A DNA stretch of 63,986 nt, counting the filler, from Octopus bimaculoides (Eukaryota), in the NCBI RefSeq assembly GCF_001194135.2. It is 8 parts of 7 records of this genome, joined end to end, with 100 filler letters (N's around TTAATTAATTAA, not from the genome) between each part and the next. Parts side by side here need not be neighbours in the genome. Positions count along the whole stretch, not along the records: positions 6,951 to 28,594 come from NC_068991.1; positions 28,695 to 38,274 come from NC_068984.1; positions 38,375 to 45,842 come from NC_069005.1; positions 45,943 to 53,337 come from NC_069004.1; positions 53,438 to 59,405 come from NC_068986.1; positions 59,506 to 62,769 come from NC_068988.1; 2 more parts are not named here. One strand, 5' to 3'. The notes under the pieces were generated by a model. It did no database searches. It was given only the letters and a program-made list of their open reading frames with translations, and was not told where the DNA came from. Below are positions 9,343 through 60,189 of the stretch, piece by piece. Numbering within the stretch: the stretch's first letter is position 1; each line of letters starts with the position of its first letter. Position numbers and translations under genes: made by a program.

Positions 9343-9625
9343 AATTTGCTTCAGCTTTATTTTACATTAATCGTATTTCGGCGAGAGTTCTTTCGTCACA
9401 CTTCTGTGACCTCATCAGTGGTCCTTTGCTTTCTTCTGTCTTATTTGTCTGTCTTTCCTTACTAATGATCAGCTATTTTGTATGGTTGATTATTAGTATG
9501 GCCGAAATACATTTAATATAAAATAAAGCTGAAGCAAATTAACACCAAATATAGTGCGTATGCCTTTATTGGCTAAAATGGAAACATGACCGTCCCCAAA
9601 TACAACAATATTTGTTTCAACACAC
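9343..9625. mobile_element. Short HHR-bearing repeat with 40-bp inverted arms (9343-9382 / 9501-9540); second copy at about 24490-24790
   Basis: Arms match at 37/40 positions; the interior is nearly identical to 24636-24785. Confidence 0.75.
9380..9424 (-). ncRNA. Minimal type I hammerhead-like motif (one stem I mismatch)
   Basis: Minus strand GGACCA-CUGAUGA-G-GUCAC(agaagu)GUGAC-GAAA-G(AA)CU-C-UCGCC. Confidence 0.55.
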
Positions 9626-10118
9626 GATTTCACATCAAGAATGTTGCAAAACGAATATATAAACGTATATATATATATGAACAGTTAAAATACAAACACA
9701 GTTTGTATTTCAACTGCATAGAATTATACATTACACCCCTCTGTATTGGTTTACTCTGTGGTTTGTAGCCCGGTCAACTAAAGAAACTTTTTTGTGAGTA
9801 CCATTTAGCCATTGGATTATCTAAATCCCTATGTTGTCCATTAAATTTATATATACTTAGATACTTTGATATGTTTCGCTCAGAATTTGCCGAAAACATG
9901 GCTAACGTAATGGCACCATCTGGAAAATACATACAATGATGTTTCATATTACAGTCGTTCTTTGCCCACGAAAGACCTTTCAAGTAAAGAGTTATTGTGT
10001 GTAGAGTTATATTCGTGGTAGGTGGTCCAGCTGGGACTCGTTGGAACTGTTCATTCTGGAGGAGTGTAAATGTTATAAAATGTGAATATACACACACACA
10101 CATATATACACCCACGCC

Positions 10119-10149
<31 letters not shown>

Positions 10150-10864
10150 GAGTGTGTGCATAATGTGTACACAAACATACCTACATTCATACACTATAAA
10201 TAGTTTATATATATATTGTGTGTGTGTGTGGGGGGGTGTACAGTAAAGATGAGGTAAGCAGACAGCAAAAGTCTTGTTATCATCCAGACTCATTATTAGA
10301 TAGTTTCAGTGATCTTAAGTAAAACCTCTCAAGGGAAGACAAAATTTATCGCCAAGAACATATGCAAGTGACAGAAAGCAATTACTTGAAATCTCCATCA
10401 AAAAGGAGCTCAAAATTGCACCAAAGGTTATCTTCTCTTCTGAATGAGATTTATTTCATTTTGTGTTAGTTATAACAGTTTTGTGAGGAGATTAAATATG
10501 AACTTCGATGACGACACATTATAACACATGAGAATAGATCAACGCAGTGGCCAAAAGGTGAACGCGGTGAAGACGTTAAACTTTTCTGTCTCATTAAAGT
10601 AAATAACAACGATTTATGGTGATCTATAGCTTTAACACGTGACCATATATTTAATGAGCGAGAGCAGTTGATTGGACGTTGTCCAACACGTGACTAATAT
10701 ATACGGTATGGGGCCCGGGAGAATGAACTGTAATGTCGACCACCGAATATGAATAGACGTAACTATATATATTAGTTCATTGAACGTTGCTCTACCGATT
10801 CTGTTAAACGTTCTATTGTAGAATTAAATTATATTATTAGAGACATAGTTGGACACTTTTAAGA

Positions 10865-11050
10865 AACAGAACCTCCGTCGGTTACGACGACGAGTGATCC
10901 AGTTGATCCCATAAACAGAACCGGCGGAGTGGACTGGAGGAATGGGAAATAAAATGTCTTGCTCACATACACAACGCACCGCCGGAATTAAACTCACGAA
11001 CTTATGATCGTTAGCCAAGTACCCTTTACTACTAAGCCACGCACCTTCAC
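10865..11050 (-). mobile_element. SINE family C
   Basis: GAGTGGACTGGAG..AATGTCTTGCTCA..ACACAACGCACCGCCGGAATT..AAGCCACGCACCTTCAC. Confidence 0.7.
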
Positions 11051-11461
11051 CTGCACACAGTACATATCTTATCTTGTTATATGACAAATCAGAGATTTCT
11101 CTTTATCATTTCACAGTTAGAATATATTATGATAAGTAGGAGAGAATTTCGTTGCACTAACTACAACCTGACACCAGATTTGGAGGCACTGCTCCAGTAT
11201 GGTCTTGGCAATGATGACTAGAGCAAATTGAAGATTAAAAAAAAGGAAATTCAATTATTATAGCAATGAATTGAAGGTGGTTGAAGAAGATAACAGGACT
11301 ATATTTCACAAAAAAAAGTCCTCAACATAAATTAACATAAGTGTATATTTTTTTGAAATTCGATCTATGACAATTTTATATGAATTTGATTGTATATATG
11401 TTAAAGATGATCCCAAAATCGGTGTTGAGAATTTGTCTTCCATACATTGATATAAACGTGC

Positions 11462-11498
<37 letters not shown>

Positions 11499-12774
11499 CG
11501 AGTGTTTTTGCGTGCGTGCCTATTCTATAGACATATATATTCTCCAGGCACAAATACACGATGACATTTTAACATCTATCGTCTCCCCAAACTGCGGTCT
11601 CGTCTCTAAATCTTAACCAAACAGCTGTGACTGCAGCATGAATATCATACAAATATTTCGACGCCTTCAATCTACAATAAACTCCAAACTTTTATATATA
11701 ATCGAGGAGCGGAGATGGCAACGAAGAAAACTTGTATGCTTGCGTTTGTTCTACTTTCTCGTTAAACATCAGAATCTCTCTCTGATCACGCCCACTGCCA
11801 TGGAATGATGAAAGATACTTTGCACAATGTGACTCAAAGTACTGAAAGAAAATAGCTGTTGTGGCGTTGGAAGGAAAATAGCTGCTGTTGCGTCTTTCGT
11901 TATCGACTTGTCCCACTATGGCTGCCCAAGGTTAAACAATAAAAAACTGCTCAGCTTCAACGTTTTTTATTTTCCCTAAAATTATGGAATGCCGGTTTTG
12001 TTTTGTTCGGGTCAGTCTCCGGAGCTCAATCCTATTTCAGATTTGCATTCGATAATGTTTTAGTGAGATATTATTTATTCGTCACACTCCAAAAACGGCA
12101 TGCATTAAATCATTGATCAAAACACAACAAAAGGAAACCAGCACAGTTTATAAAATGATAAAAGCAATGTAGACTTTGAGGTTAATCATGTGACCAGTGG
12201 CTGATAATTTCATTGCGTTTATCGACAGGACTTTTTGTAGTCTTAATAAGAATAACTAATTTAATTTCAGCAGATATCACAATGTTTTACTAAAACAAAT
12301 ATCACGATATTTGCAGAGTTTGTAATTCCTTTCTCGGAATGAGACTAATTTGTGGAAACTTGTAAGTTGATAACAGTGATACATTCACTTCTGTGAGTGT
12401 GTATGCGTGTGCGTGTGAGTGTGTATGTGTGTGTATAAGTGAGCGTGAGATGAAAGCGTTAGGCTCACGAATGTTTGATCGTGTTTCGTTCCTCGACTGG
12501 GTGACACGTTGTCTCCTAGAGTCTGACACGTAGTACCAGTACATTCAGAGGTAAACAACGGCCACCTTACCCCTGGGACAATTCTCTCTCCCCACCCCAG
12601 CTCTCACATTCGTGATGTCTCACCGGATGAGGAGTGCGAGAGACGACAGGGTATTTACGTCTCCCCGTATCTCAGCAGAAATTACAGAAAACGTATGGTA
12701 CAATCTGCCAAGCCAAACAATTTTATTTTCTCCATCACAAAATGGTTTAGACAGAAGTATATGATATTGTGATT

Positions 12775-12891
12775 ATCATTATTTTTATTCACATACACTC
12801 AACAGATTAGCCTGTTGGAAAAGAAAAGAATCCTAGCATCGGGTTACAACAAGTAGCCTTAGATGGCAAGAACCCTCCTCAGTATCCTAGC

Positions 12892-12894
<3 letters not shown>
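12775..12894 (-). mobile_element. Extreme 3' fragment of an R4/Dong-like non-LTR element next to (ATT)n at 12895-12932
   Basis: Minus strand encodes ARILRRVLAI*, matching the C-terminus TRILRRVLEA* at 56.6 kb; 5' junction is the (AAT)n array. Confidence 0.6.
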
Positions 12895-12931
<37 letters not shown>

Positions 12932-28885: not shown

Positions 28886-29047
28886 ACGAGCTTCTTTCAG
28901 TTTCCATCTACCAAATCCATTCACAAGGCTTTGGTCGGCCCGAGGCTATAGTAGAAGACACTTGCCTAAGGTGCGATGCAGTGGGTCTGAACCCAGAACC
29001 ATATGGTTGGTAAGCAAGCTACTTACCACACAGCCACACTCCTGCGC
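28886..29047 (-). mobile_element. SINE family A head
   Basis: Near-consensus CTTCTTTCAGTTTCCATCTACCAAATCC..CTTACCACACAGCC. Confidence 0.9.
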
Positions 29048-29385: not shown

Positions 29386-31601
29386 CTATTTATCCTTCAC
29401 TTGGAAACAGAGTCCCTTTGTTGTTGTCAGAGGTAATAGCTCATTAAATTGTTTCTAATCCATTCTCACTCTAACTACTATGCTGTCATAGCACTGAACT
29501 TCATTGCTAATTAGATGACATAGGGGGAAGCTGTCAGCTACAACTACGGGACCCTTTGAGCATTTAAAAGTGTTCATTTCATGGATGTTATTACTGCTGA
29601 CTACTCTCAGTATCTACCTTCTGTCAGTGGACATGTGACCCACACCTACACATCCTGTGCATCCATAGTTTATTTTGGAAACACCATACAGCATTCCTAA
29701 TTACTCTCTCTCTTTGTATAAAGCCTGGCCACTTCCCAAAGTCCTAACTTCTTTCCTACTAAGTAAAACATTTGACCAATGCCATGTGAGTGAATTTGGT
29801 AGATGAAACTGTAGGAAACCTATCATATGAATATTGTGTGCACACATGCAAGCATGTGCATAAGTATGTATATATAAACTGCATCTGGTAGTGGGGGCCT
29901 GGTACAGGAGTTTCAGGGCTTTGAGGAGAGTGGAACCACCTCTTAGCCACTTTTGTTCCCAGATCTACTCTGACCCAGAGTCGTAGCACCTTTTAGGGTC
30001 CCAGCTCTGAGTTAATAACATGTGAACCAATGGTAGTGAAGGTGCCCTAGTGCTTGCTAAAATTTCCTTCTAGGAGAAGGTAAACTTGTATAAAAGAAAC
30101 CTGAAGTGCAGCTGGTTTCTGGTTGTTTCAACCTCTGTTGTGCCACTGGGTTTATAGCTGATTGTTCTGAAAAGTGGATTCAGTGCTATCCACTCAAATG
30201 TGGTCTTACTTAGGTCATGACTTCCACCCTGTGAGTGTGAGTGTGTATAAACGCGGACATCCCACAGTTTCACTTGAGTGAAACAGGAAAAGATGTTTAC
30301 ATTCCTTGTTGAATTTATGACCAGTTTCAGTACTTTTGAAGATCAATGAAATTCTGCTTCAAACACATTTCCATCCAAGCCATGCTAGCATAGGAAAATG
30401 AACGTTAAATAAAAGAGCAAATGAACAAATACATATGTTTGCAAGTGAGTATATGTGCATAAAGGTGCTTGCTGCTAAAGCCACACTAATTTCAACACTG
30501 CTCTTAGTTTACTTATCTAATAATACCCTATTAAGTAGTTGAAATTTTCTTAAATTACTGCCTTTTGTTGGCAGTAATAACACCCATGAAATAACTCGTT
30601 CTTTTTGTTTAACATATCAAACATATACATCAGCAATGTCAGCCATCTTTCCTTGCTCATAATATTTCCCACCAATATTAATTTACAAAGATTCAAGATG
30701 AACATTCATAGTATCAATCTCACCAACCTGGGGAGAGGGGCTACAAAAGCCATTGAAAATGTTCATTCCTCAAGACCCAGCAAGTGAAAAAACAAAAAAA
30801 AAAAAATGAATATGTTACTTTTCAGCTAAACACAACAGATCCTCTGGAACATTTTCCAGAGATGCGGTTTCAATAACTGATTCATCTATTTTTATATTTT
30901 CAACTAAGTTCCATTTCACACTCCTAATACTGGGACACTGTATATTCCATCTGTCTGTATATTAAAAAGAAAGTATCTGTTGAGGATGTTACTCTTGAAT
31001 GTATCTTTGGTGACACAGAGAAAGTTCTTCTCTCTACTGTTTGTATAAGATACCTTGCCCTGGTATATAAGAATATTCTTTATCGTTGTATATGATGCAA
31101 AACTATCACAACTTCCTATTGCTAACCCCTTTACACTGGCACTAGGGATGTTATATGCCAAGAATAAAAATTCTTTATTCTGTATTGGTTTTATGAATAG
31201 TTTGAAGTAATATCATATAATACACATATGTACATTGCAATTTAGAGTTAGACCAGGTCTCATGGCTGAGAATAATTAAATACCACAACATCACCCATTA
31301 TATTTGTTAGAGGATTCAGATCTCCGTTGAGGGCTTGTCACTAGGTATGATAGAAGCCGACCAAAAGATCAGAGGCAGTAACCTTCCCTTTTTGAGTAAG
31401 CCATAAAAAGATAGTGAAATAAGAAAGGAAAAAGTCCAAACTTAGCTTACCTTTAATATATCAATAAAAGTTTGGTATTTTTAATTAAATTTTAAAATAA
31501 AATGTTTATAAAAGGTGTCAGAGTGATAGAGTATGTGCAACAACAGGCGAGAAGAAGGTTAGTAAAGTAAATGAATTGTTAATAGTCTTGTGTTATATTA
31601 A

Positions 31602-32651: not shown

Positions 32652-32870
32652 AAGGCAGTGAGCAGGCAGAATTGTTAGCACACTGGGTAAAATGCTTAGC
32701 AGCATTTCATTCACCTTTACATTCCGAGTTCAAATTCCATCAAGGCCAACTTTGCCTTTCAACCTTTTACAGTTGATAAAATAACTACCTGTTGAGCACT
32801 GGGATTGATGTGCTCAACTGACCTTTCCCCTAAAATTGCTGGCTTTGTGCCACAAACTGAAATCAATATT
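32652..32870 (+). mobile_element. SINE family B, CpG-decayed copy
   Basis: Full-length match to 38622 copy with nearly every CG changed to TG or CA. Confidence 0.85.
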
Positions 32871-34140
32871 TTGTGGCAGATTTTTAAAATCACATAAATG
32901 TACATTAGAACTCAAAATATTGGAAAGCTATCTCTAAAGACTCCTGGTGATCAACAGTATACTTATGTTGATGTTTTTGGAATCATACTGTTGCCAAAAG
33001 GTGCAGTAGAAAAGATTTTCTTGCATAAGGTCACTGCAAGATTATTAGATGCAATTCTCAGTTGATATGTTATTATGCACCCTTAACTGCCCCTATATGT
33101 ACCTTAAATGAAATCTCCAGCTGAAGCTGAACATGCTGAGTTGTTTATAAGCTTATGAACATGATGAATTGTTTATAAGCTTAAAATTGTTTATAAGCTC
33201 TTCTCACTTCTTAACCCAACAATTATAACATGAAAATAAAAATGAGATAATCTACTGAAAATTTGATTATTTCCTTCTAATCAAATCCAATAAGCATGTT
33301 CTGAGGTAACATCTTTAATAAATGGTGATATAGAAGCAGTGTGAACTGTGCTGAGGTACATACAAAATAGCCATCTTAACCTAGACCAGGAATAAGCAAT
33401 TTTTGGGGGACAAATCAAAAACACAATACACAACACACAGCATAATTAAAACTCAGTTTCGAACAGCTAAATAAGGAAATGATGAGGAAAACGAACCAAA
33501 GAAAAGTTGGAAAGAGGCAAACATTTGTATCTAGCATAAACCAACAAAATAGGCAGTGAAAACTTTATACAAAGTAATTAGTATCATCAGTGACAGCCAC
33601 ACCACTTCTGCATGTTACAATTACAAAGCTCAAATAACAGAACCACATTTCACCAGCGAAAAAATGTCTTCAAGCATTCCTTGAAAATCAGCTGCAAAGA
33701 AAACTGCATTGAGCAACGGGAACACAAAATGCAAGAATCACCCATTCCACTTTGACAAAAAGCGTCCCACACATCCTTTTAACAATTACTGACATCAACT
33801 CAACATGCTGGTTAGAAAACTAGCTTTCAGGTCATTAAAGCTACTAAAATAACACGTCTTGAATTTACAATTTCCCAAATGAGTACCACAAACATCCTTC
33901 CTATCCCATACTCATTTTAACCTATATACACACACAACCTTCCAAAACATTTCTTCACACAATACATGTAGCATCACATGTAGGAGACATGACACAATTA
34001 GACAATTACTCCAACCTTACATCAATCACCTAGAACAGCATATTAAGCCCCCACACTCCTTATGGAGCATAGGCCGACAACAACTTTTTCTCCACTGTTC
34101 TTGAATCTGGACTGTGCCTCCCAGGTCTTCTTAGATTTAA

Positions 34141-34539: not shown

Positions 34540-35030
34540 ATCATCATTGTCGTTTAACGTCCGCTTTCCATGCTAGCATGGGTTGGACGATTTGACTGAG
34601 GACTGGTGAACCAGATGGCTACACCAGGCTCCAATCTGATTTGGCAGAGTTTCTACAGCTGGATGCCCTTCCTAACGCCAACCACTCCAAGAGTGTGGTG
34701 GGTGCTTTTACGTGCCACCGGCACGAAGGCCAGTCAAGAGGTACTGGCAACGGCCATGCTCGAAATGGTGTATTTTACATGCCACCTGCACAGGAGCCAG
34801 TCCAGCGGTACTGGCAACGAACTCGCTCGAATGTCTTTTCACGTGCCAGGAAGGCGACGTTGGTAACGATCACGCTCAAATGGTACTATTTACGTGCCAC
34901 CAGCACGGAAGCCAGACAGCTGGTGCTCTGGCAACGATCACGCTCGGACGGTGCTCTTAGTGATCTACTGGTACAGGTAACATCACAATTTCGCTTTCAC
35001 TTGCCCCAACACGTCTTTGCAAGCTCTCAG
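34540..35030 (-). mobile_element. RTE-type 3' end or RTE-mobilised SINE with four internal 50-70 bp subrepeats
   Basis: (CAT)n tail + GTTTAACGTCCGCTTTCCATGCTAGCATGGGTTGGACG; GGATGCCCTTCCTAACGCCAAC motif; TTTTACGTGCCACC..GGCAACG units. Confidence 0.7.
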
Positions 35031-35504
35031 GATCATTAAGGTACACAAGTTACCACACTGCAACAAGGACTGGACTTTGTGGTATCAATCATTCAGAAGC
35101 CTGGTTCTGAGTCATTCAGAAACCTGATTTCAATCTACTGCCTCCCTTTTTTACCAGTGACACAAGAAGTCATCAAAATACACCCAACCTTTACACTTGA
35201 ACAATGTAAATGTACTTCACACTAAAAAGACAAAAATACTAGGTGATCACAAAATAAGTTCAGAAACATGAAGCAAGTATAAAAAAGAATACAGAACAGC
35301 ACACAAACATATTTAGAGCACCTGTAAGCAGTGCAAATGGCAAAACATAAAGGAACAACAACACTAGTATGTTAATAATACTTTAGATCCATCAGAATAA
35401 TGCCAGCTCTACTTGGGCCCAAAATCTCACCATAACATAAAACAATAAAGTTTTTAGCCACACAACCTTGTCTGCATCATTTATTTATTTATTTAATCTT
35501 TTTA

Positions 35505-35720
35505 GGTGTTTCAGTCATTAGAGTGTGGCCAAGCTGGGGCACCACCTTGAAGAACTTTAGTCGAGTGAATCAACCCAGATGTTACTTTTTTAAGCCTTGT
35601 ACTTATTCTATCAGTCCCTTTTGCCAAACTGCTAAGTTTCAAGGACGGAAATACACCAACACTGGTTGTCAAGTGGTGATGGAGGACAAACACAGACACC
35701 AAGACGAACACATATATATA
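35505..35720 (-). mobile_element. SINE family A 3' tail
   Basis: TTCAGTCATT..GTGGCCA.GCTGGGGCACCACC..TTTAGTCGAG..GGTTGTCAAGTGG; abuts (TA)n and a gap. Confidence 0.8.
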
Positions 35721-35844: not shown

Positions 35845-36595
35845 GGTCTGATCAATAAGTATCCGGACTGTTGCCATAGTAACAAAGCTAAAGCATGCAG
35901 AGTAAAGCTGCTTGGCACAGATTGATTTTGAACTCTGCTGTGCATGCATACTAAGTTTTAACGTTCTAGCTCAAGTCTACTGTTTACAGCAGTGCTTGAA
36001 AGGAAGGTGTGTAGTGTGTGATCGTCACATTGACCATGACAGAGAAAGATGTCATGGTGACACCTGCTCAGAGGCCTTTGCAAAATTGCAGAAAGTGTAT
36101 GAGCCACAAGTGTATGAGTGGTTCACATGTTTCCAAGATGGCCAAAAAAATGTCGATAGTGATGAATGTTCTGGGAGACCTACAACTAGCAGAACTGAAA
36201 AAAACATCGCAGACGTGCACACAGCTTTGAGGGGAAATCGGCAAATTACCATCCATGATTCATCAGAGGATGTGCAGATTAATTACAGTTTAGTTCAGTC
36301 CATTATCACTGAAGATTTGGGTATGAGACACTTATCTGCCAAGTTTGTGCCAAAACTGCTTTCAGTTGACCAAAAAGTTGGCTTTCAGTTGCACAAGATC
36401 TCCTTGATTGTGTCAAGAATGATGAAAACTTTTTGAAAATTCTGTGTAGGCCTCTGAGCAGGTATCACTAAGCCTTTGGTAAAATTTGATGCAGATTCTC
36501 TGCTCAACTTTGTCTGTCGTGGTCAATGCAACAATCGCATGCTACACACCTTCCTTCCAAGCACTGTTGTAAACAGCGAAAGTGAGCTATCAGAC
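35845..36595 (+). mobile_element. Mariner derivative: N-terminal HTH half plus inverted copy of its own 5' region
   Basis: VYEWFTCFQDGQKNVDSDECSGRPTTS..EDLGMRHLSAKFVPKLLS (HTH and WVPHEL-like motif); 36436-36589 is the reverse complement of 35967-36087. Confidence 0.85.
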
Positions 36596-38084: not shown

Positions 38085-38250
38085 TTTTTTTCTCCGTGTT
38101 TTTCTCCTTGTCTCCGTATTCTTTCTGTTGAAGAGTGTAGCTCGAAACGTCAAAGACTTTCCGTATTCCCGAGCGTCATACTAATATATACTTTTGTTAT
38201 TTACACCACCTGTCCTCGTCTGTTGTTATTATTTGTATATTCTCCCATAT
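38085..38250 (+). mobile_element. PLE-terminal-repeat-like short element (copies about 39735-39850 +, 59530-59720 -)
   Basis: Shared CT-rich flank, (C/U)CGANGA core with GAG(C)..(G)CTC hairpin, AAACGT, then GAGCGTC. Confidence 0.65.
38120..38156 (+). ncRNA. Minimal hammerhead-like motif with palindromic ACGU stem III
   Basis: UCUUU-CUGUUGA-A-GAG(uguag)CUC-GAAAC-GUC-AAAGA; 5-bp stem I, A6U core change. Confidence 0.6.
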
Positions 38251-38584: not shown

Positions 38585-38621
38585 AACACACACATACACT
38601 CACACACATATACATAGTCAT

Positions 38622-38835
38622 TAGGCGGCGAGCTGGGAGAATCGTTAGCACACCGGGCGGAATGCTTAACGGTATTTTGTCTGTCTTTGCGTTCTGAGTT
38701 CAAATTCCGCCGAGGTCGACTTTGTCTTTCATCCTTACGGGGCCGATAAAATAAGTACCAGTGAGGCACTGGGGTCGATGTAACAGCTTTACCCGCTTCC
38801 ACGAAACTGCTGGCCTTGTACCAAAATTTGAAACC
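38622..38835 (+). mobile_element. SINE family B, near consensus
   Basis: GGCGGCGAGCTGG.AGAATCGTTAGCA..GTTCTGAGTTCAAATTCCGCCGAGGTCGAC.. with A/B-box-like head. Confidence 0.9.
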
Positions 38836-39635: not shown

Positions 39636-40054
39636 GTCCACGAGAGTCCACGAGACATCACCGTCATCATCATCATCATCATCATCACCATCGGTCACTT
39701 AAGCAATGTAACTACACACGTGTTGTTGACGATTTCTTTTCTTTCTTTGGACTTTTCCCTTTTTCTCTTTTCCGACGAAGCGCTATGCTCAAAACGTCAA
39801 AACTTTCCTCTTTTTACTCAGCGTCAAACTAAGTCTTTTATTGTTAATGTTATTGTTCGTTTATTTGAACCGAATTTGTCTCAATGATAATGGTGCGAAA
39901 CTACAATGATATTTTGGTTCATTGACTGACGAGGAAAACTCTATTTTCCTCTAACTTTTTATCCGTGTTGTGTTCTGTCTGTTCAATACTTGATATATAT
40001 ATATACATAGTGAGAATTTACAAAAAAAAAACAAACGACGAACACGGGTGTGTG

Positions 40055-40305
40055 GATTTGGTAGACGGAAACTGAAAGAAGGGTGTCGTGTTGGTGTGTT
40101 CACACCCCCGTAACTTAGCGGTTTGGCAAAATTTACCGATAGAATAAGTACTAGGCTTACAAGGAATAAGTCCTAAGGTCGATTTGCTCGACCAAAGGCG
40201 ATGCTCCAGCATGACTGAAACAAGTGAAAGAATGAAAGAACATATAGTATATGGCGGTGCTCCAGCATGGTCGCAGTCAAATGACTGAAACAAATAAAAG
40301 AATAA
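40055..40305 (+). mobile_element. SINE family A, head end joined to 3' tail, with tail duplication
   Basis: GGATTTGGTAGACGGAAACTGAAAGAA followed by GTAACTTAGCGGTT.GGCAAAA..GGTGCTCCAGCATGG.CGCAGTCAAATGACTGAAACAA. Confidence 0.85.
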
Positions 40306-40331
40306 AAGAATATGTTCCTATGTGTGTGCGC

Positions 40332-41769: not shown

Positions 41770-41906
41770 TAAGTTAGAAGCTTGCTTCCCGACTATATGG
41801 TTCCGGGTTCAGTCTCACTGCGTGGCACCTTGGTCAAGTGTTTTCTACTATAGCCTTGTGAATGGATTTGTGAGACGGAAACTGAAAGAAGCCCGTCGTA
41901 TATATA
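41770..41906 (+). mobile_element. SINE family A head ending in its internal (TA)n at a gap
   Basis: ..GGAAACTGAAAGAAGCCCGTCGTATATATA then N-gap, resuming in (GT)n + CTGTGTTTGTTCTCC. Confidence 0.85.
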
Positions 41907-43839: not shown

Positions 43840-44322
43840 TGGCATGGCTCTCTGATAAGATATTTGTTTCCCAACCCCATGGTTCCGGGTTCAATCCCAC
43901 TGCATTGCATTTTGGGCTACTATCATATACTACATCTCCGAGTCGACCAAAGCCTTGAGAGTGGATTTAGTAGGCGTGCGCATGCGCGCGCGTGTATGTG
44001 GATACATACATATGTATATATGTATATACATAAATATATAATCGACTGTATCAAACTTATGGCTGTTGACACCTGTCTAAGTTGTCATGCAGTGGAATTG
44101 AACCCGGAACCATGTGGTTGGGAAGCAGAATTCGTACCACACAGCTACGTACGTATGTGCGTTATGCAGGGTTACTCTTTTACAGCTGAGTGGACTGAAG
44201 CAACGTCAAATGAAGGGGTTTGCTCAAGACCACAATACATCGTCTTTTTCAGGAATTGAAACCATGACCTTGCGATCTGATCGTAAGTACAACGCCCTAA
44301 CCACTAGGCCGCACGCCTTCAC
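43840..44322. mobile_element. SINE group: A (+) 43840-43975, A (-) 44070-44145, C (-) 44170-44322
   Basis: ATGGTTCCGGGTTCAATCCCACTG; GAACCCGGAACCATGTGG; GGAATTGAAACC..CCTAACCACTAGGCC.CACGCCTTCAC. Confidence 0.75.
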
Positions 44323-45842: not shown

Positions 45843-46810
45843 NNNNNNNNNNNNNNNNNNNNNNNNNNNNNNNNNNNNNNNNNNNNTTAATTAATTAANN
45901 NNNNNNNNNNNNNNNNNNNNNNNNNNNNNNNNNNNNNNNNNNTATATATATATATATATATATACATATATATATGAGAAATTATGATAACCACAAATTT
46001 ATATCACTTGTTCTCGAGATATTTTTTATCATTGTGGTTATCTATAACTTCTGCATTGGATTTTACGAGTGCACTTGGAGCATCCAATTCAGAGGTCCCA
46101 AACAAAAATAAAATGAAACGTACATAGGGAACGAATGATATAAACTTGTGTTTATCATAATTTCTCTTACATTTGTTCTGTATATCATACTTAGTAATAC
46201 TACTAAGTACATTTGTAACTAAACCACTATATTGGAAGTAGATTGGATGATGATAGTCTACGTGTATCTCTAAACTCACCAGTAGTAGACGTACAACTAA
46301 CTGTACACACACACGTGTATATTTATTGTGGTAAAGTAAGAGGTATTTCCCCGTTTTGATTTTGACCGAGATTAAGCATCATGCTTTATCTTTTTTATTT
46401 CCCTTCAATAACAGCATAATTTTAATAAATTATTCATGTTAAAACGTACTTTGCAATTTGTTTTTAATACAGAGAGCATCACTGGGTATTTTACCTCGGA
46501 CATTCTTCCTAGTTTTCATACCTATCAATGTTAATTCACAAAAGTTCTCTATATGCAGTTTAATCAGTTAAAACCAGCCAGGGTTAGCAAGTAATTACTT
46601 CGCTAAGGAAAGTTAATAAGATCGAAACATGTATCGATGATTAGACTCCCATTGCATTATTCACATTGATTTAAATCTATCAAGCTTTGTAGTTGTCTCC
46701 CTTGCCATTATTTTTTTTCTCCATAGCATTAATCGTTAAACTATTATTGACTTTTTCATCTTCAATACAGTGTAATTTTAATTACGATTTTGTAAGGTCT
46801 CGTTATGTAT

Positions 46811-46945
46811 AGGTTTATTCATAATGCAACATGGCCATCGATGTTTCAACCAGAATGCTGGCTGCGCCTCGTCAGAAAGCTTCTCTGACGAGGCTTCGCG
46901 GCCATTCACTTGGCCAAAACAACGATGTAAGAATATGAATAAACT
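46811..46945. ncRNA. Back-to-back pair of degenerate hammerhead-like motifs (46835-46876 -, 46881-46933 +)
   Basis: Plus: UUCU-CUGACGA-GG..CC-AAAAC-A(acga)U-GUA-AGAA. Minus: CUGACGA-GG..CCAG(cauu)CUGG-UU-GAAAC-AUCGAU-GG. Central 10-bp inverted repeat CCTCGTCAGA/TCTGACGAGG. Confidence 0.6.
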
Positions 46946-47649
46946 ATTTATAAATATTGTGTTGGATACTGAATATATATTGACTTAAATGTTTACTAGA
47001 TCGGAATCGTGTGTGTGCCTGTGCCTGTGTGTGTGTGCGCGCACATACACACACGTAAATAGATGGATGTATGCGTGTACTCTTCAGGATATTACTGCAT
47101 TTCTTATTCCAAGACAAGCGATTTATTTCTTTTTCACTTCAAGCATGCCTAACATTTTTGATGGTAGTCAATAATCTGGAGAGAGTTGGGCTCCATCTAA
47201 CTGGCTTCTCTTTCAAATACTTCTTTAAAATGAAACCCTTAGTAGAGGATGACTTAACAGGATCCAGTTTCCTGTGTAATAATTCACTGTGCTATATACT
47301 AATCAGGAAATTGGTTTATTCGTGTCAAAATTGAAGTGGGTTAAGTGTGTTTCAGTTTACTCAGTCATCGTTGCTCTCTTTAAAGCAAGATAAGCTACTT
47401 ATCTTGAAACTGACTTTACATAAATTCATTAACATCTGTTGGAAAGAAAGAATATATCATGAAAAACGAAATTGTATGGAGAAGTTTAGGAAAAGCGACA
47501 TTAAGGATGGGTCAAGAATGAATTGAAGACATGTCCTGGCACGAATTGAAAATCGAAAAAGAACGAAGAGAAAGAGAAGAATGTCATCAGAAATCAATAA
47601 AATAAAACCTGGGTCATTGATATTACTTATAGTATTGCTAGTTACATAA

Positions 47650-47865
47650 GTCAGTGATCTGGCAGAATCGTTAGCATTCCGCGCAAAATGTTTAGCGGCA
47701 TTTCGTCCGTCTTTACGTTCCGAGTGCAAATTCCAACAAGGTCGACTTTGCTTTCCATTTTTTTGAGGTCAATAAAATAAGTACCAGTTGAACTCTGGAA
47801 TCGGTGTAATCAACTTACCTCCTCTCCCGAACTTACTGTCCTTGTGTCAAAATTTGAAACCAATA
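47650..47865 (+). mobile_element. SINE family B
   Basis: GGCAGAATCGTTAGCA..GGTCGACTTTGC..AATAAAATAAGTACCAGTTG..AAATTTGAAACC. Confidence 0.85.
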
Positions 47866-48089
47866 TTTCTAGCTATTTGTTTTTATCTGAGTCTTCTGAT
47901 ATCAAGCCTTACTTTTACCCAAACGACGTTGCTGATAATCGATCCTACATAATGCCTTATTTTCGTTAACTTCTACTATTTCTGTTGTCTTGGATACAGT
48001 TTTAGTAAAAAGTATCGCTCATATATATCGTTGTCGGCTCGTCCCTCGAATCCGAGGAATTGATTTCTCCTCCTGGATGAATATTTGGA

Positions 48090-48915
48090 TCATTAATGCT
48101 GCTGGTGAATGTAGCTAATGAGGTCAATCCTCGCATTGGCCACATGTGAATGTCGGAGTCGGTCATGGTCATTGCTGTCTGGCCTTCCGTTACCGTTGTC
48201 TCACCTCTATTTTATTCTTTCTCTTTCAGACAATATTACGTTATTGTTTATGTTTTGTCGGTAGTTGGAACAGTGGTTACGATCATCTCAAAAGCCTGGG
48301 GGTCGAAGCTGGCCTGCTCCCAAGTTGAATTTGGCTGATCTTTGTAACATCGAAGAGAGGTTCCTCTTTGTCTTTACCCGGCTGCCAGTTTACTGAAGAG
48401 AGTTTGGTGATATGGCTATGTCGTCGAAGACGATATTTAATTATTAGGGATTCGATGCTCTCGCTATTCGCTCTTTCCATCACGGAATTATTGTGTTCAA
48501 GAGAGCGCGGAGTTTCAGTTGAAAGCGTTCAAGTATTTTACTGTCACTACTATATAAAGTCCAAGTTTCACAACCGTATAAGAGCGTGAATATGACAACA
48601 GCTTGGTAGACCATAATCTTCGTCTTCAAAGTTAGCTCTTTGTTTTTGAATACACCTTTTGTTAGTTTACCGAAAGCTGAATAAGCCGATGCAATACTTC
48701 GTTCCACACCTTGTTCAGAATTGCATTTGGTGGAAAGCACACTTCCAAGGCATGCAAACTTGCTTAAGTGGCGAGCCCGAAATGTCGATGTTAAAATCTG
48801 GCAGGGCAGAAATCGGGGCTGGTTGGGCGAGGACTTAAGGTTTTTAGTATTAACAGTGAGCCCAAAACATTGATACACATTGATGAAATTCTTGACAGCT
48901 TGTTACACTTCTGTG
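48090..48915 (-). mobile_element. RTE/BovB-like LINE 3' part
   Basis: FACLGSVLS..SAFGKLTKGVF..KIMVYQAVVIFTLLYGCETWTLY..LERF; ERANSESIESLIIKYRLR; degenerate terminal CxxC finger (FTCGQC). Confidence 0.85.
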
Positions 48916-50742: not shown

Positions 50743-51299
50743 GATGCATCTCCCTCTGTTTCGATGATGAATATTCAGGTCTAGTGAAACGGTCGTAGGA
50801 ATATTTTCTTTTAATATGTGACCCAAAGCTTTTTTTATGATGCCTATTATTTTCTCTTCCCTATATTCTCAATTCTTTTTTTAAAAACATTTTCATCAAT
50901 AATCCTATACTTCATTATATTATTACTATGTTTATATATCCATATATTTATATGTCTACATATATTTTTAATATTCATGTATTTTTATATTTTTACATAT
51001 ATTTTTAATATTTTTTTTTTTAAATTTATTTATGTGTTTCAGCCAAGTGGCTGCGGTCATGCTGGTGCACCATCAATTTTATTTTGGACAATTTTTTATC
51101 TTACTTAAATCCGTCCGCATATGTTCTCATTGTAGTTTGCCTGACTTGAACTCTTTCCATTTCATTTGTTATACTTGTCTAACATCTTAGGTTTGACTTG
51201 AGCACTTCTATGTGGTCTATGTGTTTCGTAAGAAAACTATAACGATATACTTTTGCTCTATAGAGCGCTTCTTATATAGACTGCAATAGTGGAAAAACA

Positions 51300-53120
51300 A
51301 TTTTTAGGTATTTCTACCAAGAACACCCCTATACCATCTAGGGACACATATGGAATTTCTTCTATATGAGACCACCGAATTTATAAACAGATTAAGATAG
51401 TAGGCATTTTTCTAGGTTGCTAAATACGAACAATCTAATGAAAAGGACAGTTATAATCCCTCCTTCAAACCCAGCTCTGGTAAACTTCGAAAAAGACTTA
51501 ATGCACCTCATAATAAATTTAAAGTTTTCTAAACATACCAATTCCTTCCGGAAAACATATGAAGGATAAAATTATCACCTGCTCTACACGTACTCTCCGA
51601 TAAAATGGGCAACATTTATTCAATACCGCTGGATACCTACAATGAACTAATTTTTAAGGAATTAAATACCAATTATGAACATGCAAAGGATACCGCACTC
51701 GAGAATATTAATAAAATACACTATAAACCCATCTCAAATTTGAACCTACTAGACAGGACTGAACCTTACGTACCAATAACTTCCCACTTTACTTGAAAAG
51801 ATCATAAACCTAACTTCCAATCGAAACCATCTATTAGACTTATATGTCCAACAAAATCCGACTTGCGTAAAATTAGAAAATGCATAACAGATAGAACAAT
51901 ACCGTGTGCCAAAAATGAATAGAATAATACCATGTGGTATTATGGAATTCCCTTAATGGATTTCAACTGGGGATGTAATAACATGGTCCCATTCTCTGCC
52001 AGGTATGCAAAACACTCGCTTTATACAGTTTGACATTTCGAATTTTTATACTTCTATTTCCCCTATCTTATTGAACAAGGCATTAATATTTGCCCGTAAT
52101 TTCGCTAATATCCCCCCGATCCAATTTTCACATTATTTTGGCAGCGAGAAAAACCTTGATTAATTTTAATGAGCGTAATTGGATAAGAAGTGACTATATG
52201 AACTACTTCGACATCACTATGGGTTCGTCAGACTCGGCCCAGGTGACAAACCTTGTGGTCTATATCCCCTTTTTCATGTTAAGAGAAGTTTTCCAAACGT
52301 CTCTGGTGGGCTTTATAGGGATGCCACTCTCTTGGAAGTAAATGGCTTATCTAAACCGGAGGTCGCACACATTAAGAAGTCATTAAGAAAATTTCTTTTG
52401 ACTTTCTTTAATCTTAATATTGTATTTGATACTAACACAAAAATTGTGAACTTTTTAGACGTCACACTTAATTTAAACACCAAATTATATTACCCTTACC
52501 GCAAACAAAATCAAACATTACAGTATATAAACGTTTCTTCTAATCATCTTAAACTAATATCATTACGGCTATCTCTATTAGAATCTCCAGCCTATCGGCG
52601 GCAAACGAGGAGATTTTTAAAGCACATGCTCCATTTTATTATCAAGCCCTAAAATTAAGCAGCTTTCATGATCATATTTTCTACATCCCTGACAACAAAC
52701 TCAAAACCAAATTAGCTAATCTCCCTCTGACATTAATCCTGAAATCACTAAAACGATTTCTTCCTAAAATTATAAACATATAAGAAAACCTTTCGTTAAT
52801 CATACTAAACTTCGTAACGTTCAGTTTAGTAATCGTAACAAATACAGTCCCTATTTCTAGGCTTACGTGATACTCACACAAACCTAGGTTTCTGGATGTT
52901 ATTTGTCCTCAGGGTGAGACAACCACAAACGAGTGACAAAAGCTCTCTCCACTTGCAAATACTATATAATTTTTAAACGACGCTGATTTCGTGTAGAGAA
53001 AAGCAACTTGTTTTAACTCTCTGAGCGGAAGATATGTTCTTATTCTATTATGCCACCTACAGCCTAATGATGCCAATTGACAATACCAGTTTTTGGGTCG
53101 CACCGAGCTGTGCCGATATA
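51300..53120 (+). mobile_element. Decayed Penelope-like element (RT + GIY-YIG), pseudogenised
   Basis: KNTPIPS; SDKMGNIY; KDHKPNF..IRLICPTKS; RFIQFDISNFYTSIS; FDITMGSSDSA; GLYRD; IVNFLDVTLNL..YPYRK..YINVSSNH; degenerate YYAT..FLGRTE. Many stops and frameshifts. Confidence 0.85.
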
Positions 53121-53486
53121 TGTAGGGTAAATATAGTAATAGTAATAATAATTCTTGGACGGAATTTTAAAATATTTTAATGCATCGCAATACATTAAAA
53201 AAATTAATAAATTCTATCCAAGGATTCTTATTATTACTATATATATATCACGCTGCCGCACTTGCCCTTACCTCTCCAACACCACCCTCCTCACCAGCAC
53301 CCATCACCGACCCTATCGCATCACCGACTCCTTCACCNNNNNNNNNNNNNNNNNNNNNNNNNNNNNNNNNNNNNNNNNNNNTTAATTAATTAANNNNNNN
53401 NNNNNNNNNNNNNNNNNNNNNNNNNNNNNNNNNNNNNCAGACAGGCAGACAGACAGACAGACAGACAGACTGATAGACAGACAGAC

Positions 53487-53629: not shown

Positions 53630-53790
53630 AACCCATTAGTGTTTACGTCCCCGTAACTTTGCGGTTCGGCAAAAGAGACCAATAGAATAAGTACTAGGCT
53701 TACAAAGAATAAGTCCTGGGGTCGATTTTCTCGACTAAAGGCTTCAGCATGGCCGCAGTCAAATGACTGAAACAAGTAAAAGAGTAAAAG
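53630..53790 (+). mobile_element. SINE family A 3' tail
   Basis: GTTTACGTCCCCGTAACTT.GCGGTTCGGCAAAAGAGACC..CAGCATGGCCGCAGTCAAATGACTGAAACAAGTAAAAGAG. Confidence 0.9.
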
Positions 53791-54519
53791 AGTAAAGAGT
53801 ACAACCCGTATTATTCTTATCCCACTAGTAGCCATTCCTGATCTCATTATATTTTGCAACAATATATTCCTTGACATTTCCAATTATTTATATTTCCATA
53901 TAGCAGAATGGTTCAGTGTTTAACTTTTCACCCGAAACTATTCCAGTCTTCATTTCTCTTGCAACTTTAACCCATAATAGCCACTCCTGATCTCACTGTA
54001 ACACAGTAATGTACACTTAATTTTCTATAGATATTTTATTCCCTGCTTTTATTTTTGTCCCTTTAAGTTATATTTTATATATAATTTTTATGTTGTTTAC
54101 ATTATAAAGGATTTTTCAATTCAATATTTACATGTTGTTGCTTACAGCTTTATGTGTATGCTTTGATATATATACTATCCTCAAAACAATTTTTTCACGT
54201 TCTCTCGAAAGTTTATAAGAATCTTATGGCGCTCTATATTCATAACTCTAAGAAAGAACTCACCTCTAGCAATATTCATATGCGCTATCCCCTTACAATT
54301 CTTTTAACGCAGGAAACAGTACTGGAAACTCTACATACGACCAACATAAATATCACCGATATTCTGATAACTTGTTGAATTTTGTCGTCTGAGTACTAGG
54401 TATTAACCGAGTGTGAATCTGGAAGTTGCGATGAATTATCTCTGACAGACTTCATTACATATATATTTCACTCTACTATTGCGCTGAATATTCTGATTCT
54501 GTATGTGATAACATAAATT

Positions 54520-55054: not shown

Positions 55055-55773
55055 CGGGTATGAGTATAAGTGCGAATATATTGTTGTTAAATCAGATGTT
55101 TTCTCCTCAGTGAAAAAGATCTATCAAACTAATTTAAGGGTTTTCTGCCGTTTTATCAGAGGACATTTACTCCTCTTTTTTTTTTTTCTCATTTTTTTTT
55201 TTTAACATTGAGAGAATGATAAGTTATAGCCATAGCAAATCCAAACCCGAATTGAACTAAATTGGTCTACTGCAATTTGTTACACTGTGCAGTGTTAGCA
55301 TTATGCATTATCTAATTAACAGAAGCACTACAGAACACTTCATTTTATTAAAGTAATGTAAGGTAGACTTACATGTGTTTTATAAATAAATGAGCACATT
55401 TTTAGCCTCCTTATGATACCGTGGTTAGATCACAGATGTTTACATCGTGTGAGCAGATACTATAATGTGAATTAAAGCTGACCAATTGAGTCTAACCGAG
55501 TTTGTATACAAAATAGATAACTGTATAATACTTTTGTCCGCATGTCAAGCAAATGAGTAACTGATGACTGACGAAATAGTAAAATATTTGCTGAAACTAG
55601 TCCTCAAATTCGTTTCTGATTACAAAGAAAAACATGCAGCTTGACTATTGTATCTAATTTTGATAGCGAGGCTTAAAATTTGTGTTTACTAAATAATACA
55701 CAACGTGAAAACTATAATGTTACTTTACATCTATCTCTCCACCCTAATATGCTACTCTGTGATGCTTCCGTTA

Positions 55774-56716: not shown

Positions 56717-56717
<1 letters not shown>
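56384..56717 (+). mobile_element. 5'-truncated R4/Dong-like non-LTR element (restriction-like endonuclease end) flanked by (AAT)n
   Basis: IIDIACPGDNRINVKEEK..KYDDLKWEIRRLW..IVIGALG..QKSALLGTTRILRRVLEA*; (AAT)n at 56305-56383 and 56718-56773. Confidence 0.85.
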
Positions 56718-56773
<56 letters not shown>

Positions 56774-56774
<1 letters not shown>

Positions 56775-56965
56775 TAGTCCAATAATGTAGTGCAATATAA
56801 CATACAGAAAATTGCACTACTGGGCTCTGCACACATCCTACGCAAAACACTTTCAATACAGTAACCATAAGAGCATCACAGCAAACCACAGCACATACCC
56901 AAGGCACACAGAGCTGCGCTCGGTAGTGAAGTGAAAGCACGTTATAAAAATAAAACTACTGAACA
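56774..56965 (+). mobile_element. Second, different R4/Dong-like 3' end, also followed by (AAT)n
   Basis: YNIQKIALLGSAHILRKTLSIQ* at 56796-56864, then a 3' UTR unrelated to the first. Confidence 0.75.
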
Positions 56966-56974
56966 ATAATAATA

Positions 56975-57011
<37 letters not shown>

Positions 57012-57114
57012 CAATCATTTTCCATCAGGGCGAAGGATGCGGGGGACAATACAAAGACAGACATAAAGTGGTGTTGTACCTATAATGAAATGATAAAATA
57101 ATTATAAAAAATTT

Positions 57115-57420
57115 TTTTTTTAAGTATACATGGTATACAATGAAAAGGAAAGGACATATACATAGTTTACAAAGGATTTAAAAAAAAAAAGGCGGGGTGC
57201 AGGATGATAGAGACGTAGCCCTCCTGATACAGGATGACCTCTAGGGATAATCGAGGGACCACACTGTCCGAGATCTCCCTGAGCACCAAGAGCAAGTGCC
57301 CTCTCCAATTCCTTTTCTCTAACTCCCAAGTCTACACTTAGAGAGGTACCATCTGGGTTTCCTAGGTAGGTGTAGTGAAAAGGCGGTGAGCTGAACAATC
57401 TGTCTTTGATCATAATGATG
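57115..57420 (-). mobile_element. Possible poly(A)-tailed retroelement 3' end
   Basis: GC-richer segment ending on the minus strand in ..CATGTATACTTAAAAAAAAAA; no clear protein motif. Confidence 0.25.
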
Positions 57421-57619
57421 GTGTTCTCGTTATTAAATCATTGTTATCGTTAAATACTAAAAAGTGATAAAGAAACATTGATCGTTTTTGTTGCTGGTGT
57501 CCTTGCTTAATCCATGGTCAACCCCGGTGCAGCAGACATTATAAGCAAATATATGCCAGCCATGATCATCACGCCTGTATTCCATAGTATATTTCGGACT
57601 ACATTTAAGAAAGTATAGA

Positions 57620-58151
57620 CGCAGGTATGGCTGTGTTGTTAAGAAGCTCGCTTTACAATCACGTGGTTCCGAATTCAATCCCACTGAGTGGCGCCTTGGG
57701 CTGACCAACGCCTTGTAAGTGAATTTGGTGGACAGAACCTGTATGGAAGCCTGCTGTGAATATGTGTGTGTGTGTGTGTGTGTGAAAAATGTGTCCCTGT
57801 GTTTGACCACCACACTACCGTTTGATAACTGGCATTGGCTTGTTTACGTCTCCGTAACTTAGCGGTTCGGCAAAAGCTACATCTAGAATAAGTCACGTGT
57901 CCATGTGATAACGTGACCGACCAGACTATCAGATGGTGTGACACATCGCTGGTCACAATACCCTTTGCATCGTTTTAACCATCGAATGACGCCACCCCGC
58001 TGGCTAAGCGAGCAGGCCAACACTTGATTGAAAGGAGACTAAATGAAGTGTCTTGTTCAAGAACACAACGCGCCGCTCGGTCTGGGAATCGAACATACGA
58101 TCTAGCGATCGTGAGTACAACACCCTAATCCTTAGGCCACGCACCTTCACC
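57620..58151. mobile_element. SINE A head + (TG)n + tail (57620-57895 +) followed by SINE C (57905-58151 -)
   Basis: Matches to other A and C copies. Confidence 0.8.
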
Positions 58152-58219
58152 TACAATAAGTACCAGACTTAAAACGGAAAAAAAATGAAGTAGTACTGGG
58201 TCGATTTGTTCTTCTAGAC

Positions 58220-58448
58220 AAGGGTTTCTCAACCATTTCTTCCCTGTGGATCCCTTTGATTCCTATTTTACTTGGATGGATTCTCATAGCCATTCGATGT
58301 TTAAAAAGTCCTGTTACATTTTTATAATTAAATATTATTTGGAATTGTATAAAAAAAATTATGAAAATATTTTGTGTATTGAAGCAACACAATCTTATAT
58401 GGACCCCCAAAGGTCATATGAACCTCTGTTGAGAACCACGAACCACTG
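58220..58448. mobile_element. hAT/Charlie-type MITE nested in a SINE A tail (58152-58512)
   Basis: TSD TTCTAGAC (58212-58219) / ATCTAGAC (58449-58456) fits NTCTAGAN; ends AAGGGTTTCTCAAC ... GTTGAGAACCAC(GAACCAC)TG. Confidence 0.8.
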
Positions 58449-58794
58449 ATCTAGACACTTCAAAGTGGTGCTCCAGCATTGCCGAAGTCCAATGACTGAA
58501 ACAAGTAAAAGCATGTCTAATGACTAATGAGATTTAAAGACTTTACTGCTATTTCTAATTGTTAAAGAGACCACGTAGAGACTTTATTGTTAACTCGTGT
58601 TCTTGTTTTCCATATTATTTGTTCGTTAGCCCCAGGTTAGTCTTGCTCGAGCAGGCATATGATCAAAGGCGTTCCAGCCGCGACCATTGCGTCGTTTTAT
58701 ATATGAAATATTTCAATGTCCAATGCGTTCTAACACAATAAAGTGTGATTTGAGGGAGATTTTACTGCTTTCTCCAGCAGGTTAAACAGCATTG

Positions 58795-58844
<50 letters not shown>

Positions 58845-59173
58845 AACTACTACTACTACTACTTATAGCGCTAATATAACTATTACAACTTCAACTACTA
58901 CAACTATCACTATTACAACTACTACTAGTACTTCTACAACTATTACAACTTCTACAGCAACAGTTACTACTACCACCACTAATACTACTAACACTACCAG
59001 TAAAACTAAAAGCCAACGAGTAAGCCTCCACATGGTCACTCGACCAGCTAGAAATAACTGCTAGATATGCCTCAAATCACAACCCTACTGTCTTAGGAAG
59101 GACACGTTGATTGGAAACTGTGTCCCCTGCAAATTTGAAAGAGACGAGATGGTCATGGATCGAAAGCAGACCT

Positions 59174-59229
<56 letters not shown>

Positions 59230-59250
59230 TGCAGTAGCAGCAGCAGCAGC
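58795..59250. repeat. (ACT)n at 58795-59000 and (AGT/AGC)n at 59176-59250
   Basis: Direct; explains poly-T and poly-L ORFs. Confidence 0.9.
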
Positions 59251-60189
59251 AGCCTAGGGTTGTGCAAATAAACATGATGGTCATGTCGGGTACGTTTTTG
59301 ATCATAGAGTATGTCAACTAACTTGGATCTAAATAACAACATGCAAACGTTTAGCCAACTGTCAGACACCACGCAGCAGCATAGCCGATAAGGTGCGTTT
59401 GATATNNNNNNNNNNNNNNNNNNNNNNNNNNNNNNNNNNNNNNNNNNNNTTAATTAATTAANNNNNNNNNNNNNNNNNNNNNNNNNNNNNNNNNNNNNNN
59501 NNNNNATATATATATATATATATAATTACTTCCAAAAACGGAGAAAAAGACAAGAAGAAAGAAGCAACACACCAACGTGAGGACGTAGCACGAACAAAGT
59601 AATAATAAGACGCTCAGAGAAAGAAAATAGTGATTGTTTTATGTTTTGAGCATAGCTCCTCTTCGGAAACAGAAAACATAGGAAAATCCAAAGGAAAATG
59701 AACAAGGAGTAAAACAAGTCGCTAACAGTCCACGTGTATTTAGATTTTTGAAATGACCAGAAGTAGAAGGACAAATGTGCGTGTGTTTGTTTGTGCGTGC
59801 ATGCGTGCGTGTGTGTGTGCGAGCGTGAGAATGAGAGAGGGGTGAGGTGGAGTATGGGTGCGTTGTCTGAAGGGTGTGTGAATGGATGGGTGTGGCTGTG
59901 TATGTGTGTGGCTGTGTATGTGTGTGTGTTGGGATGTGTACGTAGACGGAGTGGGAATGTGCATATGTGTGCGTGTGAGAGTCTATCTCTGTGTGCGTTC
60001 TGTCACTGTCTCTCTGTGAATAAATGTGTGTGTGTACCTATCTCTGTGTGTCACTCTGTTGCCCTCTCTCGGTATATATGTGTGTGTGGATGTCTGTGTG
60101 TACGTGTGTCGTGCATGTATATGTGTGCATGTACGTGAGTTGTGTGTGCGTTGTGTGTGGATGTGTGTGCGTGTGTATGCATTATTTCT

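Follow-up and report, generated by a model that had tools for sequence, protein, structure and literature searches.

Hammerhead-like motifs in 64 kb of Octopus bimaculoides DNA as probable truncated 3′ tips of Penelope-like elements

The DNA considered here is a stretch of 63,986 nucleotides (nt), filler included, from the Octopus bimaculoides assembly GCF_001194135.2. It consists of eight parts of seven records joined end to end and is referred to below as the window. It is 34% GC, contains 25 assembly gaps, and is rich in microsatellites. Two kinds of features concern us: short motifs resembling the type I hammerhead ribozyme and the relic of an open reading frame (ORF) of a Penelope-like element (PLE). 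Twelve hammerhead-like motifs occur at nine loci and belong to six or seven families (Table 1). An earlier note, made from the sequence alone, had listed ten positions, and all ten carry a type I hammerhead-like motif, with core base C3 at 9418(−), 20753(−), 20774(+), 23632(+), 24714(−), 38125(+), 39772(+), 46875(−), 46885(+), and 59666(−). Two further motifs, with C3 at 1097(−) and 1236(+), lie inside a fold-back at 1056-1277. The described form, a CUGANGA-like core with a stem II, a GAAA-like segment, and usually an NUH triplet, was found again: mismatches to the core number zero in three motifs, one in five, and two in four, and the match is full at 24714(−), the only motif with both core and helices intact, the other 11 of the 12 having defects in one or the other. 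The note had spoken of about five unrelated elements; the existence of several families stands, and the count is now six or seven, including family F, which was not on its list.

By blastn, family A comprises the loci at 9.4 and 24.7 kb (88% identity over 117 nt) and family B the copies at 39742-39805 and 59637-59696 (80% identity over 61 nt). The motif at 38.1 kb is B-like and gave no blastn match to the family B copies at 39.8 and 59.6 kb. Families C, D, E, and F have one locus apiece in the window. An extra base after A9 together with a G10.1-C11.1 pair is present in families A and B (five motifs); family C and the right arm of family D have the pair without the extra base, and families E and F are without the pair. 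The intact motif at 24714 has an extra G after A9, a 6-bp helix II, and a 2-bp helix III with an AA loop. Among the 13 core mismatches, four are of the CpG type (G12A three times and G8A once) and four are the U4C substitution, present in families B and E and common to related copies. The sequence shared within the window families stops 4-160 nt past the predicted cut; in the right arm of family F it stops after 4 nt, at a (CA)n run.

Five of the nine loci are fold-backs, namely the four given by the earlier note and the one at 1056-1277, and all five are head-to-head, with the 5′ ends of the arms at the centre and the 3′ ends outward. In family E the arms join at a palindrome of 8 bp, and in family D they overlap in one of 6 bp, located 14 nt (E) and 7-8 nt (D) upstream of the respective cores; the arms of family F share 88% identity over 69 nt. 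The spacer of this last fold-back contains a short tandem duplication. The flanks are TA-rich at families A and C (in the latter, around the direct copy) and consist of (CA)n at family F. An unambiguous target-site duplication was found at none of the seven palindromes examined in the window. The head-to-head arrangement is the hallmark published for PLE insertions and supports the view that the fold-backs are inverted copies of the PLE type.

The frequency of the motifs was compared with chance in two ways. A strict descriptor, derived from the published minimal motif, matched the window 1, 3, and 6 times at no more than 0, 1, and 2 core mismatches. Over 809 dinucleotide shuffles, made block by block, the corresponding averages were 0.006, 0.21, and 3.09, and the counts of the window were reached by 5, 1, and 73 of the shuffles, respectively. 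At one mismatch or fewer, only 24714, 38125, and 46885 pass. In a log-odds scan, with a score devised after the motifs had been viewed, the eight top scores of the window (at least 19.7) all came from the 12 motifs, with 0.17 expected per window from 421 shuffles; the right arms of families D and E and both arms of family F are among these eight. This null is lenient, because an excess of the window over its shuffles is present at low scores too (176 matches against 125 at a threshold of 5). The motifs at 59666, 39772, 46875, and 20753 have noise-level scores (1.0-2.4 expected per window), alongside eight noncandidate matches in the same range, and rest on homology with their partner copies. 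As a set, the hammerhead motifs exceed chance, while 4 of the 12 are individually at noise level. The expectation that their frequency would lie above a shuffled background was thus borne out with both the descriptor and the log-odds score. Eight log-odds matches scoring 15-18 were set aside as noise, and the matches at 55568(+), which has an intact core without helix I (score 8.8), and at 50764(+) (log-odds 10.7) are regarded as chance.

A search with minimal descriptors and with the hammerhead models of Rfam had also been proposed, and the former gave matches, whereas the latter did not. No hammerhead reached the gathering score of the Rfam covariance models in the window, and none was found at E ≤ 10 in three local scans or among the best 150 of 276 matches. 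The miRNA matches in these scans are microsatellite artefacts. The folding of single motifs was uninformative, with a z below −2 in just one of 12; the value for the direct copy of family C is −2.9. When helix III was folded as a self-duplex (8 of the 12 motifs), energies of −0.5 to −12.7 kcal/mol were obtained for seven motifs of families B-F and +1.4 kcal/mol for family A, the activity of which is therefore doubtful even as a dimer. Covariation in helix I of the B-type motifs is suggestive only: one pair is C-G, U-A, and G-C across three copies, a covariation score also attained by 92 of 500 shuffles.

Family A alone was followed beyond the window, by comparing the reference sequence 9120-9660 with four runs, two of DNA contigs from two organisms and two of RNA, at 80% likeness. 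DNA-like runs that carry the unique sequence of the window have about 2-2.4 Gb of contigs. Family A was found in 6054 contig records of the first organism and, with the same profile, in 4281 of the second. In the first organism, the depth summed over its hammerhead reaches 1.38 million, compared with 45.9 for the unique flank; the ratio of the two, about 30,000, is not a copy number and is used for its order of magnitude only. These data support family A as a true, genome-wide, high-copy family at about 3×10^4 times single-copy depth. Since this depth predicts about 0.8 copies per 64 kb against the two seen, the window is ordinary for family A; the set called dense by the earlier note is indeed in excess of the shuffles, and what falls away is any special density of family A here. 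The genome as a whole is suggested to hold hammerheads at high density, about 12 per Mb for family A if depth tracks copies.

The change at 9383 that breaks helix I is private to the window copy, as about 99% of the depth has the pairing base. In the majority of family A, helix I is intact, and the core and helices I and II match the PLE minimal type I hammerhead. Among the 40 differences listed, out of 112, none lies within 9384-9428 and none shows stem covariation. The 3′ end of the family lies near 9657 (loose ends at 9650/9657), where copies enter heterogeneous flanks (agreement 0.51-0.57). The copy at 24.7 kb, which contains a poly(A) expansion, stops about 48 nt before this end, so that the 3′ ends of the two window copies are about 48 nt apart, near to but more than the PLE tail of 30-40 nt given in PMC11167929 and PMC3846280. 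In the 5′ direction, one RNA run (X21) contains 105 reads that extend beyond 9483 with one consensus, by a median of 53 nt or more, and family A is therefore longer than both window copies. Of the 15 joints listed, out of 42, nine skip from left arm to right arm on the same strand and differ in their breakpoints; we read them as other fold-back insertions with variable breakpoints; opposite-strand joints were left uncounted, the reference itself containing two similar arms. Further loose ends at 9367 and 9582 and variants of about 50% at 9429/9432 point to at least two family A subfamilies.

Taken together, the 12 motifs are probably, for the most part, decayed and 5′-truncated 3′ tips of six or seven PLE families. 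The assignment to PLE-type minimal hammerheads, already suggested in the earlier note, is supported by the extra base and G10.1-C11.1 pair of families A and B, the palindromic helix III of families C-F, and the head-to-head fold-backs; the four CpG-type mismatches of 13 and the presence of a Hydra-like PLE relic in the window also speak for this reading. According to published PLE biology, the reverse transcriptase (RT)-endonuclease would nick AT-rich or (TA)n DNA, and reverse transcription would begin near the RNA's 3′ end, where the hammerhead lies (PMC11167929). It would usually stop early, after 70-300 nt, and an inverted truncated copy would frequently be joined at the 5′ junction, giving a head-to-head fold-back; the inserted copies may then have decayed neutrally. 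Processing of tandem transcripts in the parent elements would fall to ribozyme dimers formed through the palindromic helix III. Nearly all copies in the window are predicted to be inactive, because they have no same-strand partner, the hammerheads of the fold-backs lie on opposite strands, and 11 of 12 are defective.

Several observations weigh against this reading. Five arms in families C, D, and E begin just 6-14 nt upstream of the core, a position not predicted by random truncation; the recognition of arms is, for its part, biased, since only arms retaining the core are recognisable. Helix III of family A is poorly palindromic (its self-duplex is the unfavourable one given above), and a family with some 3×10^4 copies is also SINE-like (short interspersed element). 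The two window copies of family A end within about 20 nt of each other at the 5′ side. Finally, no PLE ORF lies beside any of the nine loci (3.1 bits being the highest profile score away from the relic), so that the link to an autonomous element consists of motif form and architecture only.

The last two points, together with the very high depth of family A in both organisms, would suit a possible but doubtful alternative, that some of the families, and A in particular, represent short, non-autonomous derivatives of PLEs with defined ends of their own, copied in trans by PLE protein. Non-autonomous PLEs resembling the 3′ ends of autonomous ones are described in Chlamydomonas (PMC8557442). Conversely, the continuation of family A upstream in the RNA reads and the variable breakpoints of its fold-backs argue for longer parents, and most PLE insertions are 5′-truncated in any case, as stated in bioRxiv 10.64898/2026.07.22.740005. 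The reading of the earlier note, taken as short, discrete, non-autonomous families, found no support: family A extends 5′ past its copies, breakpoints vary, and no tandem array is seen.

A more specific and unlikely proposal is that family A forms a PLE satellite, non-autonomous and present in about 30,000 copies, the RNA of which would be cut in vivo by its own hammerhead, with reverse transcription running off the cut end. It stems from the direct arm starting at 9500, exactly at the predicted cleavage site, a single case in the window; a junction in the second organism (run X15) resumes at 9501, within 1 nt of the predicted cut, and may represent the orthologous locus. A genome-wide peak of 5′ truncation at the cleavage base would be direct genomic evidence of PLE hammerhead cleavage during retrotransposition, and the 5′ breakpoints of tens of thousands of truncated family A copies would bear, statistically and at low cost, on in vivo cutting by these hammerheads. 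For the PAc element, which is active, PMC11167929 reports no RNA-seq ends at the cleavage site and a cleavage that is dispensable in vitro.

RNA bears chiefly on another explanation, that of non-LTR (non-long terminal repeat) retrozymes, in which the copies would be monomers dispersed from tandem arrays via circular RNA. Retrozymes occur in molluscs (PMC7229834), the monomer fraction of retrozyme families spans 0 to 1 (bioRxiv 10.64898/2026.07.22.740005), and family A reads number about 160 per million in both RNA runs. These reads are equal in both directions, absent from the unique flank, and pass in 92-94% of cases into unlike sequence, as expected of copies lying inside host transcripts. 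For 6% of each of two cDNA runs, neither a site where many family A molecules begin or end nor a head-to-tail joint was listed; the 15 joints listed, out of 42, likewise include no head-to-tail one. The 5′ ends at the predicted cut and the circular junctions suggested as a check by the earlier note were thus not seen, in libraries poorly suited to them; these negatives count little, because cDNA libraries are weak for small circles and cut ends. None of 59 Tandem Repeats Finder (TRF) rows in the window is a hammerhead-containing tandem repeat, and family A 3′ ends enter heterogeneous flanks in two DNA-like runs. Since neither a tandem array nor a pile-up of RNA ends nor any head-to-tail joint was seen, the families are not retrozymes as defined, and this origin is very improbable. 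What they have in common with retrozymes, as described in the same two sources, is a non-coding nature, a type I hammerhead, and a relation to the pseudo-LTRs (pLTRs) of PLEs; the definition of retrozymes calls for circular RNA and for hammerhead-bearing units of 150-450 bp in head-to-tail tandem, neither of which is seen here.

That fold-backs D, E, and F are fixed palindromic units resembling MITEs (miniature inverted-repeat transposable elements), with an incidental or chance hammerhead look, would agree with the two hammerhead-free palindromes of like size in the window (45976-46166 and 53128-53245), the noise-level scores of the left arms of D and E, and the single occurrence of each family, yet it is scarcely credible given the top-eight scores of their remaining arms, the absence of the defects of one arm from its partner, and helix III forms matching the Hydra-clade table of PMC8557442.

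Among the closest known systems are the minimal type I hammerheads of metazoan PLEs (Cervera and de la Pena 2014, PMC4209133). They share with the window the CUGANGA/GAAA/NUH core, the extra base between positions 9 and 10.1, a short helix I, and a helix III that is tiny or palindromic, and likewise form numerous divergent families in one genome, with most copies single and some in opposite-strand pairs. The pairs described there lie 100-700 bp apart and are attributed to truncated PLEs, the motifs being mostly single. Differences from these hammerheads are the non-palindromic AA loop in helix III of family A, the U4C substitution of families B and E, and the arms of 60-260 nt in the window, which in D and E directly abut. 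Published counts of minimal motifs are 2,000-9,000 for fluke, coelacanth, and frog (PMC4209133); more than 6,000 hammerhead motifs are given for a coral (PMC7229834), and 235 Rfam hammerhead matches have been reported for the giant squid.

Hydra-clade PLE hammerheads (Craig et al. 2021, PMC8557442) share a palindromic helix III with families C-F. The likeness extends to a helix II often carrying a U or U-U at its base, a position mostly near the 3′ end, and an inverted truncated copy at the 5′ end of insertions that are often 5′-truncated, and may extend to (TA)n targets; Penelope-13_HM has one hammerhead per strand. Helix III of family F is identical to that of Hydra-1_oBim (supplement S2), and the rest of the motif differs. 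The window families differ from these PLEs in having no attached ORF, and none of them matches a sequence listed in PMC8557442: of six motif terms, five were absent there, the sixth, an 8-mer, giving three matches in unrelated-looking contexts. The Penelope pLTRs of Adineta vaga (Arkhipova et al. 2013, PMC3846280) show head-to-head inverted copies, junction palindromes as in D and E, an optional 3′ tail, and solo pLTRs, whereas the window keeps almost only the hammerhead-bearing tip. The word ribozyme is absent from the papers on O. vulgaris and coleoid repeats that were covered, and a search for cephalopod hammerhead surveys, with Repbase and Dfam outside its scope, brought up only Craig et al. 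2021 and the giant squid count. As far as these searches reach, the families of the window are unlisted members of the well-described class of PLE hammerheads, and they add to it unannotated families which Rfam misses altogether.

The PLE relic itself, the ORF of which is frameshifted and stop-ridden, matches positions 20-476 of a 711-position profile. phmmer returned 1412 relatives at E ≤ 0.001, and an 806-residue homolog was matched by tblastn at E 3e-41, with 39-55% identity in pieces. Homologs of the relic carry DKT and RW[KR] motifs; the 806-residue protein has LRWR, and the relic reads DKM. Motifs of the DKT and LRWR type characterise Hydra-clade PLEs (PMC8557442). GIY-YIG was found in two of five homologs with scores below the Pfam cut-off, and no endonuclease was detected in the relic by profile search. 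Pfam named none of eight PLE fragments, and a word-indexed homolog search returned none. By these resemblances, the relic appears to be a dead Hydra-like PLE, and it shows that such elements were once active in this genome. It does not show that this element moved the hammerhead families, as the earlier note had proposed: it is frameshifted and partial, has no hammerhead of its own in the motif and log-odds scans, and has no blastn similarity to the families. A hammerhead-like string at 53064, with three core mismatches, was rejected and is absent among the log-odds matches listed (at least about 6.5 bits); by eye, it sits where the endonuclease of the relic would be.

Table 1. Hammerhead-like motifs, their arms, and the PLE relic in the window (C3, core position; mismatches in brackets).
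Feature	Position	Strand	Remarks
Family F left arm, fold-back	1056..1124	-	C3 1097 (G8C); palindromic helix III centred on 1 nt; helix I of just 2 bp
Family F right arm	1206..1277	+	C3 1236; core intact; mismatches in helices II and III
Family A inverted arm	9342..9499	-	C3 9418; intact core; change at 9383 breaks helix I; cut predicted after 9385
Family A direct arm	9500..9656	+	Starts at first base 3′ of predicted cleavage site; runs to family 3′ end; TA-rich DNA
Family E left arm	20694..20767	-	Decayed hammerhead, C3 20753 (U4C, G8A); noise-level by itself
Family E right arm	20760..20819	+	C3 20774 (U4C, U16.1C)
Family C inverted copy of last 57 nt	23572..23628	-	No hammerhead; 88% identical to 23802-23858
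Family C direct copy	23626..23858	+	C3 23632 (C3U); helix II long and bulged; helix III a palindrome; GUC 23696-23698
Family A single copy	24524..24785	-	C3 24714; intact hammerhead; predicted cut after 24681
B-like classic minimal hammerhead	38118..38158	+	C3 38125 (A6U); ACGU palindrome; GUC
Family B copy	39742..39805	+	C3 39772 (U4C, G12A)
Family D left arm	46813..46882	-	Decayed hammerhead, C3 46875 (U16.1G, helix I lost); noise-level by itself
Family D right arm	46877..46944	+	C3 46885 (G12A); GUA
Hydra-like PLE ORF relic	51299..52726	+	Frameshifted; N-terminus to RT thumb; tblastn and profile match
Family B copy	59633..59696	-	C3 59666 (U4C, G12A)

Other repeats and ORF fragments are scattered over the window. 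The two hammerhead-free palindromes mentioned above are AT-rich and imperfect (72% for 45976-46166 and 77% for 53128-53245) and are possibly MITEs; the second interrupts the PLE relic. The best match of the window to the PLE C-terminal profile lies at 30964-31077(−) (E 0.29) and is possibly a GIY-YIG remnant. A SINE-like repeat of about 220 bp, with copies 70-80% alike, occurs at 1982-2671, 32652-32871, 38619-38835, 47645-47878, and 60183-60331, the copies at 2.0-2.7 kb being tandem-like. One dispersed short repeat family is present at 73-189, 15283-15435, 28886-29037, 41773-41906, and 43845-44148, and another at 35500-35695, 40088-40313, and 53639-53794. A tandem repeat with a 67-bp period and no hammerhead occupies 34706-34946. 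An 85-bp inverted repeat pair at 35967-36589 lies inside ORF pieces that are mariner-like by eye, with no Pfam support. Fragments of ORFs resembling long interspersed elements (LINEs) are found at 48480-48902 and 62818-63925, with weak RVT_1 and PHD matches below cut-off at 63494-63922.

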